A stretch of 9,373 nt of DNA from positions 1 through 9,373 of IMG/VR virus record IMGVR_UViG_2529293142_000001; one strand, 5' to 3'. The notes beneath the pieces are model-generated. The model saw nothing but the letters and a program-made list of their open reading frames with translations. It was not told the DNA's origin and made no database searches. Shown piece after piece: positions 1,027 to 3,595 of this stretch. The first letter of the stretch is position 1. Every line of letters begins with the position of its first letter. Both the position numbers and the translations under genes were made by a program. The DNA comes from a virus (lineage: Monodnaviria; Loebvirae; Hofneiviricota; Faserviricetes; Tubulavirales).

Positions 1027-3595
<2,569 letters not shown>

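Follow-up and report, generated by a model that had tools for sequence, protein, structure and literature searches.

The stretch of DNA considered here, called the window below, comprises the 9,373 nucleotides of the IMG/VR virus record IMGVR_UViG_2529293142_000001, an inovirus prophage of Escherichia coli. The subject is its gene for pI, the Zot-family protein that serves as a marker gene and is the presumed motor of filamentous-phage assembly. The Walker A motif of such proteins is routinely given as GxxxxGK[S/T], while in the pI of the window the residue after the lysine (the K+1 position) is a glycine. The features of the gene are the following:

2384..3595, minus strand: gene for pI, a Zot-family morphogenesis ATPase of 403 residues, intact (open reading frame list, Pfam PF05707, PHROG 1675)
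3557..3580, minus strand: Walker A motif (P-loop), G6-N-L-G-Q-G-K12-G13, residues 6-13 (translation and codons)
3557..3559, minus strand: codon GGC of G13, the K+1 position, which is Thr or Ser in canonical pI (codon reading)
3347..3364, minus strand: Walker B motif, A78-L-F80-L-D82-E83, with D82/E83 corresponding to M13 D88/E89 and F80 to the position of M13 V86 (alignment)
3236..3238, minus strand: Q120, equivalent of M13 Q126 and likely gamma-phosphate sensor after strand 4 (invariant in all groups)
2747..2812, minus strand: predicted transmembrane helix, residues 262-283, between the cytoplasmic ATPase domain and the periplasmic C-terminal domain (AlphaFold2, hydrophobic sequence)
3602..3606, minus strand: Shine-Dalgarno-like GGGGA, 6 nt 5′ of the pI ATG, of presumed function (sequence reading)

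The assignment to the pI/Zot family, proposed in an earlier note made from the sequence alone, is borne out by the profile matches. The protein matches PF05707 (Zot) with 37 bits, above the curated cut-off of 20.3, and PHROG 1675, ‘morphogenesis (protein I of M13)’, with an E-value of 1.8e-50. The gene has no indel compared to that of the related prophage L001, and its length equals that of relatives of 88–98% identity. Met242 and Met244, just 5′ of a basic stretch and the transmembrane helix, are candidates for an internal start of the pXI type, with no clear Shine-Dalgarno sequence upstream of them. A promoter and terminator scan around pI gave no signal exceeding the shuffle expectation.

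Residues 6–13 of the 403-residue reading frame are encoded by GGT AAT CTG GGT CAG GGT AAA GGC (3580..3557), exactly the GNLGQGKG motif reported in the earlier note. G6, G11 and K12 of the consensus are kept, and G13 aligns to the Walker A Ser/Thr column (M13 T15). The protein is thus a member of the Zot/pI family that deviates from the textbook motif at one defining position. The two motifs that the note had given for comparison also agree with the literature, namely GKLGSGKT for M13, as printed in PMC5408679, and a Walker A with Pro10 and Tyr13 for CTXphi Zot (bioRxiv 10.1101/2022.09.21.508815). Its statement that GGC is at least two nucleotide changes from any Thr or Ser codon, on the other hand, is wrong, as the Ser codon AGC becomes the Gly codon GGC by one A>G transition. 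AGY is the K+1 Ser codon of 15 out of 47 distinct GKS relatives, so that the variant could realistically have come from a GKS ancestor in one step.

We now consider how widespread the variant is. The alignment with pI/Zot homologues suggested in the earlier note shows GKG to be fixed in an enterobacterial clade and recurrent elsewhere in the family. Of the 92 homologues found, each of the 45 full-length relatives with an identity between 98% and ca 32% has GKG, their hosts being E. coli, E. albertii, Enterobacter, Edwardsiella, Salmonella, Acinetobacter and a metagenome-assembled genome of Plesiomonas. Homologues beyond ca 32% identity are mostly GKT or GKS, with scattered further GKG groups among them. 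Among the best 150 representatives of 50%-identity clusters, from a library of 1.84 billion proteins, the K+1 residue is Thr in 65, Ser in 56, Gly in 26 (17%) and Asn in one. The Walker A consensus is hence not universal in the pI family, because 26 of the 150 deviate in the same way. Species-representative genomes (79 loci) gave 53 Thr, 21 Ser and 5 Gly, the last including Comamonas, Caenimonas and Janthinobacterium, and the 78 loci on IMG/VR viral contigs gave 33 Ser, 23 Gly and 22 Thr. GKG common to many pI proteins, the observation that by the note's own account would speak against an inactive pI, is therefore made at the level of sequence. Another non-hydroxyl variant was seen in P0239, a pI relative of 396 residues with Asn at K+1 (GKLGAGKN).

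A neighbour-joining tree of the N-terminal domains was built with column 13 masked, and the K+1 changes were counted on it by parsimony. About five changes are required. All members of one large enterobacterial clade are GKG, and four smaller GKG lineages are nested within GK[S/T] proteins, which suggests that Gly at K+1 arose at least five times in the pI family. The M13 pI label of the tree carried GKLGAGKT, where PMC5408679 prints GKLGSGKT; its K+1 class is unaffected by this. One of the minor GKG lineages, P0076, is 52.6% identical to M13 pI over 231 residues, a value computed with database records.

G13 is encoded by GGC in the window as well as in L001 and L002. The P0038 and P0019 prophages use GGG instead, and a Salmonella prophage GGT; across loci the K+1 Gly codons amount to 13 GGC, 5 GGG and 4 GGT. 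With three codons encoding it among diverged members, the glycine has been kept through synonymous turnover. These data also bear on the option that the G13 codon is a sequencing or assembly error. The window does hold many small, possibly erroneous indels elsewhere, but the identical 403-residue pI is listed in 82 blocks of a public assembly collection (25 contigs read), GGC recurs in L001 and L002, and every full-length relative down to ca 32% identity has Gly. The chance of such an error is negligible.

To see what else accompanies the glycine, 172 N-terminal domains were compared residue by residue, 59 of them GKG and 113 GK[S/T]. G6, G11, K12, N33, D82, E83, W113, D114 and Q120 are invariant in both groups alike, and G9, N89, R91, R109, K110, D126 and Q128 are nearly invariant, to an equal degree in the two. 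All GKG and all GK[S/T] proteins are set apart from each other by residue 13 and by no other position. The Walker B motif conforms to hhhhDE, its Asp and Glu being invariant in the 172 relatives. In M13 gp1, phage production depends on K14, D88 and E89 as essential residues (PMC5408679), with a loss of about 10^4-fold for K14A. Q126 matters as well, and the inactive CTXphi Zot lacks it (bioRxiv 10.1101/2022.09.21.508815). These four residues correspond to K12, D82, E83 and Q120 of the window pI, where all are retained. From the match to the RecA-like fold and the same preprint, Q120 is likely to act as a gamma-phosphate sensor. A term search of the 2017 M13 gp1 paper (PMC5408679) did not return ‘T15’, and the Thr after the Lys was apparently not mutated in these two studies.

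The ratio of nonsynonymous to synonymous substitution rates (dN/dS) was calculated by the Nei–Gojobori method for the N-terminal ATPase domain (residues 1–240) and the C-terminal part (residues 241–403). The values are 0.045 and about 0.3, respectively, for the window against L002 (88% identical), 0.059 and about 0.3 for L001 against L002, and 0.082 and 1.27, the latter from only 5 differences, for the window against L001 (98% identical). The ATPase domain of pI is accordingly under strong purifying selection, with dN/dS of about 0.045–0.08, and the C-terminal domain evolves faster.

The surroundings of the P-loop differ between the GKG lineages. In the main enterobacterial clade the pocket departs from that of canonical pI at A17, Y18, Y23-Y24, Y/F34-P35 (instead of L-D), F76, A78, F80 and E122. 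The Phe at the position of M13 V86 is found in 43 of the 47 main-clade proteins, compared to 3 of the 113 GK[S/T] proteins. Since F80 and D82 lie on one face of the Walker B strand, it is plausible that G13 and F80 have been repacked in a coupled manner. The minor GKG lineages have none of the main-clade changes and an otherwise canonical pocket, which means that Gly at K+1 is tolerated in such a pocket. No residue compensating for G13 was found to be common to all GKG lineages among the 172 domains.

Next, the fold was examined with an AlphaFold2 model built from a 38-sequence alignment. The predicted local distance difference test (pLDDT) score is above 90 over most of the N-terminal domain, in which the P-loop is placed between the strand of residues 2–5 and the helix of residues 12–25, and the C-terminal domain is small and beta-rich. 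A Foldseek search against the PDB returned RecA proteins, the N-terminal domain of Neisseria meningitidis Zot (2R2A) and the FtsK-HerA-type packaging ATPase B204; the best 50 fold matches listed are all ATPases of the RecA type, that is, with the additional strand and catalytic Glu (ASCE), and include no kinase. As judged from the model, pI thus has an ASCE/RecA-like hydrolase fold and not a kinase fold. The nearest solved structure of the family is 2R2A (Foldseek E = 3e-5, TM-score 0.58 normalised to the target), which differs from the window pI in its GTPGSGKT motif and is only about 15% identical to it. It was found by sequence with the family profile (E = 0.014), while a single-sequence PDB search with pI gave nothing relevant. 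We found no functional data on 2R2A.

Gly at K+1 is also known from P-loop nucleoside monophosphate (NMP) kinases such as adenylate kinase (GxxGxGKG). In contrast to the window pI, these enzymes have the kinase fold with LID and NMP-binding parts, lack the Walker B catalytic Glu, and transfer the phosphate to a substrate and not to water. The window pI is not an NMP kinase, and only the analogy of the Mg ligand applies.

The closest comparison is with the gp1 proteins of M13/f1/fd and their counterparts in IKe, If1, fs2 and VFJphi, which belong to the same family and have the same gene position (pVI-pI-pIV). The architecture of M13-type gp1, with an N-terminal RecA-like/ASCE ATPase, one transmembrane helix and a periplasmic C-terminal domain, is common to the window pI, and the identity over the N-terminal domain is about 32–34%. 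Unlike M13 gp1, the window pI has Gly at K+1 (vs Thr/Ser), Phe at the V86 position and N-Y-P (vs N-L-D) after strand 2. It also differs in having no periplasmic cysteines: Cys occurs only at residues 40, 68, 84 and 140, and the C-terminal periplasmic domain (2384..2746, minus strand) has none. In M13 gp1 the periplasmic pair C332/C347 is described as essential (PMC5408679). The pair probably characterises pI of the Ff type and not the family at large.

A second comparison is with CTXphi Zot, which shows no ATPase activity in vitro (bioRxiv 10.1101/2022.09.21.508815). The two proteins are alike in having a non-consensus nucleotide pocket and Phe at M13 position 86. However, CTXphi Zot keeps the Thr at K+1 and deviates at Pro10, Tyr13 (in place of the Gly before the Lys), Phe84 and Q126P, whereas in the window pI L8, G11 and Q120 are canonical, A78 is present in place of Phe84, only the K+1 residue is lost, and F80 is the only marker that matches. 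The window pI is hence not a deviant Zot of the assembly-impaired, toxin-associated CTXphi type, as defined by Pro10, Tyr13, Phe84/Phe86 and Q126P.

We now turn to the rest of the prophage, the other genes of which are as follows:

1044..2273, minus strand: pIV-type secretin gene, 3′ of pI (Pfam Secretin PF00263, E = 8e-25)
3613..3972, minus strand: pVI-like minor coat protein gene, 5′ of pI (PHROG 1944 ‘minor head protein’, E = 6e-5)
3972..5438, minus strand: pIII-like adsorption protein gene with Gly/Ser-rich 27-bp repeats (Pfam Phage_Coat_A, E = 7e-7)
5496..5738, minus strand: pVIII-like major coat protein gene (PHROG 1646 ‘major coat protein’, E = 5e-4)
about 6528..8530, minus strand: replication (Rep) gene, of the 667-residue Phage_GPA type in relatives and broken here (comparison with L001-L006)
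8527..9373, minus strand: IS110-family (DEDD) recombinase gene, adjoining Rep and frameshifted (indels at 9135-9154)

The module pVIII, pIII, pVI, pI, pIV has the typical inovirus morphogenesis order, which is the same in all related prophages, as is the position of the pVI-like gene. The prophage differs from Ff in having the Phage_GPA-type Rep and the IS110-type recombinase instead of the Ff pII; the recombinase is probably the integrase of the prophage.

The condition of this other part of the window could be taken to mean that the glycine is an inactivating lesion in a decaying or domesticated prophage, with pI being a relic or repurposed, for example as a Zot-like toxin. Namely, Rep is split into at least six open reading frames by about eight frameshifting indels of 1–2 bp (7149, 7346, 7557, 7610, 7645, 7657, 7743 and 8172), while it is intact in L001–L006. 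The IS110-type gene is frameshifted in the window and L001, and intact with 325 residues in L002–L006. The absence of the Cys pair essential in M13 can be added to the same side. However, the differences between the window and the L004 prophage (GCA_000225185.3) amount to 2–3 substitutions and ca 13 small indels, many of which are homopolymer length changes. This excess of indels may fit assembly error or very recent inactivation alike, and none of the indels is located within 76–4563, the stretch of pIV, pI, pVI and most of pIII. Furthermore, the identical pI is found in prophages with intact 667-residue Rep and 325-residue recombinase, at no fewer than two chromosomal sites, ybiB|hcxB and yoaA|yoaB; E. 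coli assemblies with an intact prophage include GCA_000225185.3 and GCA_005043475.1. Since the same pI is located in these intact prophages, the frameshifts in the window carry no bearing on GKG. Decay would also have to be reconciled with a variant that is clade-wide and recurrent, with synonymous codon turnover, an N-domain dN/dS of about 0.05–0.08, and only F80 (Phe at 86) of the CTXphi-type markers, Pro10, Tyr13 and Q126P being absent. This reading is largely refuted by the comparative data and is very improbable in our estimate. We are, on the contrary, highly confident that Gly at K+1 is an old, fixed and selected variant. Of the interpretation in the earlier note, the suggestion of an altered catalysis stands as a possibility, considering that the K+1 hydroxyl is deemed strictly conserved and catalytically important (PMC9599734), whereas an inactive, decaying or repurposed pI does not agree with a variant that is clade-wide, recurrent and selected.

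A number of observations were made on the related prophages. The two chromosomal sites were seen by comparing L001, L002 and L005 with L006 and L008. In L003 and L004 one flank belongs to the first site and the other flank to the second, an arrangement suggestive of an inversion or of recombination between two copies, and carrier genomes have a median of 2 places matching pI. In the pIII linker (4406..4915) the number and order of the 27-bp repeats vary, the protein having 488 residues in the window and 479 in near-identical prophages (L003 and L004 compared). The IS110-type gene is labelled ‘IS110 family RNA-guided transposase’ in some RefSeq records. At the pIV-distal end of the prophage there is a DUF2726-family gene (152..538, minus strand), possibly a cargo or accessory gene, the product of which is 128, 188 or 220 residues long in different copies.

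The GKG pI occurs in complete morphogenesis modules associated with three different replication modules: Phage_GPA Rep with IS110-type recombinase, Ff-like pII with pV, and Rep_trans. Two metagenomic viral contigs with GKG pI have the terminal overlaps typical of circular assemblies. One of them, L163 (6,738 bp, 121-bp overlap), encodes Rep, pV-like, repressor, pVIII-, pIII- and pVI-like proteins, that is, a complete inovirus gene set, together with an intact pI (GKLGTGKG, ILVLDE). Two further records can be mentioned. On L098, an 8429-bp contig of GCA_030002875.1, a pI 88% identical to that of the window is joined to Rep_trans (PF02486), which points to modular exchange between replication and assembly halves; this 8.4-kb, phage-sized contig has no terminal overlap. 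The other, L100 (NZ_AP045060.1, pJNE25-005_3, 9613 bp, circular), belongs to a complete E. coli assembly, and this ‘plasmid’ record is a P0038-type filamentous phage with GKG pI. It has an IS3-family insertion and many indels, and 7 chromosomal places in the same strain match the pI gene. Being an error-rich episomal copy of such a phage, it is counted as weak evidence only.

What the glycine means for catalysis has to be judged against the general view of P-loop NTPases. In a structure survey (PMC9599734), the K+1 Ser/Thr is called strictly conserved and is said to take part in catalysis jointly with the Walker B Asp. On this view one would not expect a presumed hydrolase of the ASCE type to have a large GKG clade that is under selection. 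The main natural exceptions in that survey are the NMP kinases with Gly, in which a water becomes Mg ligand number four and phosphoryl transfer still works. The reading that we favour, with moderate confidence, is that the window pI, encoded by an E. coli inovirus prophage, is a working assembly ATPase of the inner membrane, with a lineage-wide GxxGxGK-G Walker A motif and a remodelled Mg site. That GKG pI still hydrolyses ATP is somewhat more probable than that it does not.

The following mechanism can be envisaged. The backbone amides of the P-loop and K12 would keep binding the ATP phosphates, and a water molecule, held by the Walker B D82, would fill the Mg2+ ligand site of the missing hydroxyl, as in the NMP kinases that carry the K+1 glycine. 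Activation of the attacking water would remain the task of E83, and Q120 would serve as the sensor of the gamma-phosphate. In this way pI could still power or gate filament extrusion via the pI–pIV channel, its affinity for Mg or its turnover being probably changed. In the main enterobacterial clade, F80, Y/F34-P35, Y18, Y23-Y24 and E122 may be the part of the P-loop pocket remodelled together with G13. A stronger version, in which GKG pI proteins act as motor ATPases with full competence for hydrolysis and G13 and F80 of the enterobacterial clade form a compensating pair, we hold to be possible but somewhat doubtful.

Several points weigh against a hydrolysing GKG pI. In other P-loop NTPases the replacement of the K+1 Ser/Thr abolishes activity, and it has been argued that Gly at this position in kinases suppresses the hydrolysis of ATP by water (PMC9599734). 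The main clade has Phe exactly where V86F is a loss-of-function mutation in M13 gp1 (bioRxiv 10.1101/2022.09.21.508815). Both the water-ligand mechanism and the G13/F80 coupling are inferred, and purifying selection is evidence that the domain is important and not evidence of ATP hydrolysis. In addition, tblastn searches of 50,697 phage records with the pI of the window, P0038, P0076 and P0084 revealed no close relative of any GKG lineage among isolated, virion-producing phages, and GK[S/T] is present in each of the nearest phage isolates that were checked, namely fs2, Vaf1, Vibrio 10N and Ralstonia NP-2014. The Zot of an A. baumannii filamentous phage is likewise reported as canonical.

A virion-producing relative was sought in the YpfPhi/CUS-1 lineage, which is known to form virions and to which P0038 might belong, but no support for this assignment was found. 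The YpfPhi paper has no information on the Walker motifs, and Y. pestis is absent among the 80 genome loci. The carriers of P0038, for example E24377A, differ from the K1 E. coli strains that are the hosts of CUS-1.

The alternative that follows from these objections is that GKG pI binds the nucleotide with no or very slow hydrolysis. ATP would then act as an oligomerisation or conformational switch for pI/pXI–pIV, and the extrusion would be driven by the proton-motive force or by coat-protein polymerisation. The strict conservation of the K+1 hydroxyl, the inactivating replacements and the proposal that Gly prevents futile hydrolysis in NMP kinases are all in line with this, as are F80 in the main clade and the lack of in vitro ATPase activity in CTXphi Zot, which is also a deviant pI. 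CTXphi makes virions in its native host despite this lack of activity. On the other hand, no GKG lineage deviates at E83 or Q120, just as in canonical pI, which is difficult to reconcile with an ancient loss of hydrolysis, and the minor GKG lineages keep an otherwise fully canonical pocket. The very low dN/dS of the N-terminal domain also speaks for hydrolysis, although a role limited to binding fits that value too. We consider this alternative rather unlikely, and prefer the working assembly ATPase with a remodelled Mg site.

These results have consequences for how pI sequences are used. The K+1 hydroxyl is missing in 17% of the nearest 150 cluster representatives, including all retrieved members of an enterobacterial prophage clade known from E. 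coli and Salmonella, and motif-based filters for functional inovirus pI would wrongly drop the GKG phages. Nor should a missing Ser/Thr at K+1 be taken as a sign of prophage decay. The function of this residue has so far been debated mainly on the basis of structures. We found no paper on a GKG variant of pI in a literature search, and the GKG pI proteins appear to be an undescribed natural test case for the K+1 hydroxyl in an ASCE ATPase. The family moreover offers matched natural pairs of GKG and GK[S/T] proteins for such tests, some of them more than 50% identical to M13 pI. If GKG pI proteins are indeed fully hydrolysing, they would constitute a large natural exception among ASCE ATPases to the strictly conserved Ser/Thr of Walker A, and a counter-example to models that require the K+1 hydroxyl as an Mg ligand or as the partner of the Walker B Asp in a proton relay.
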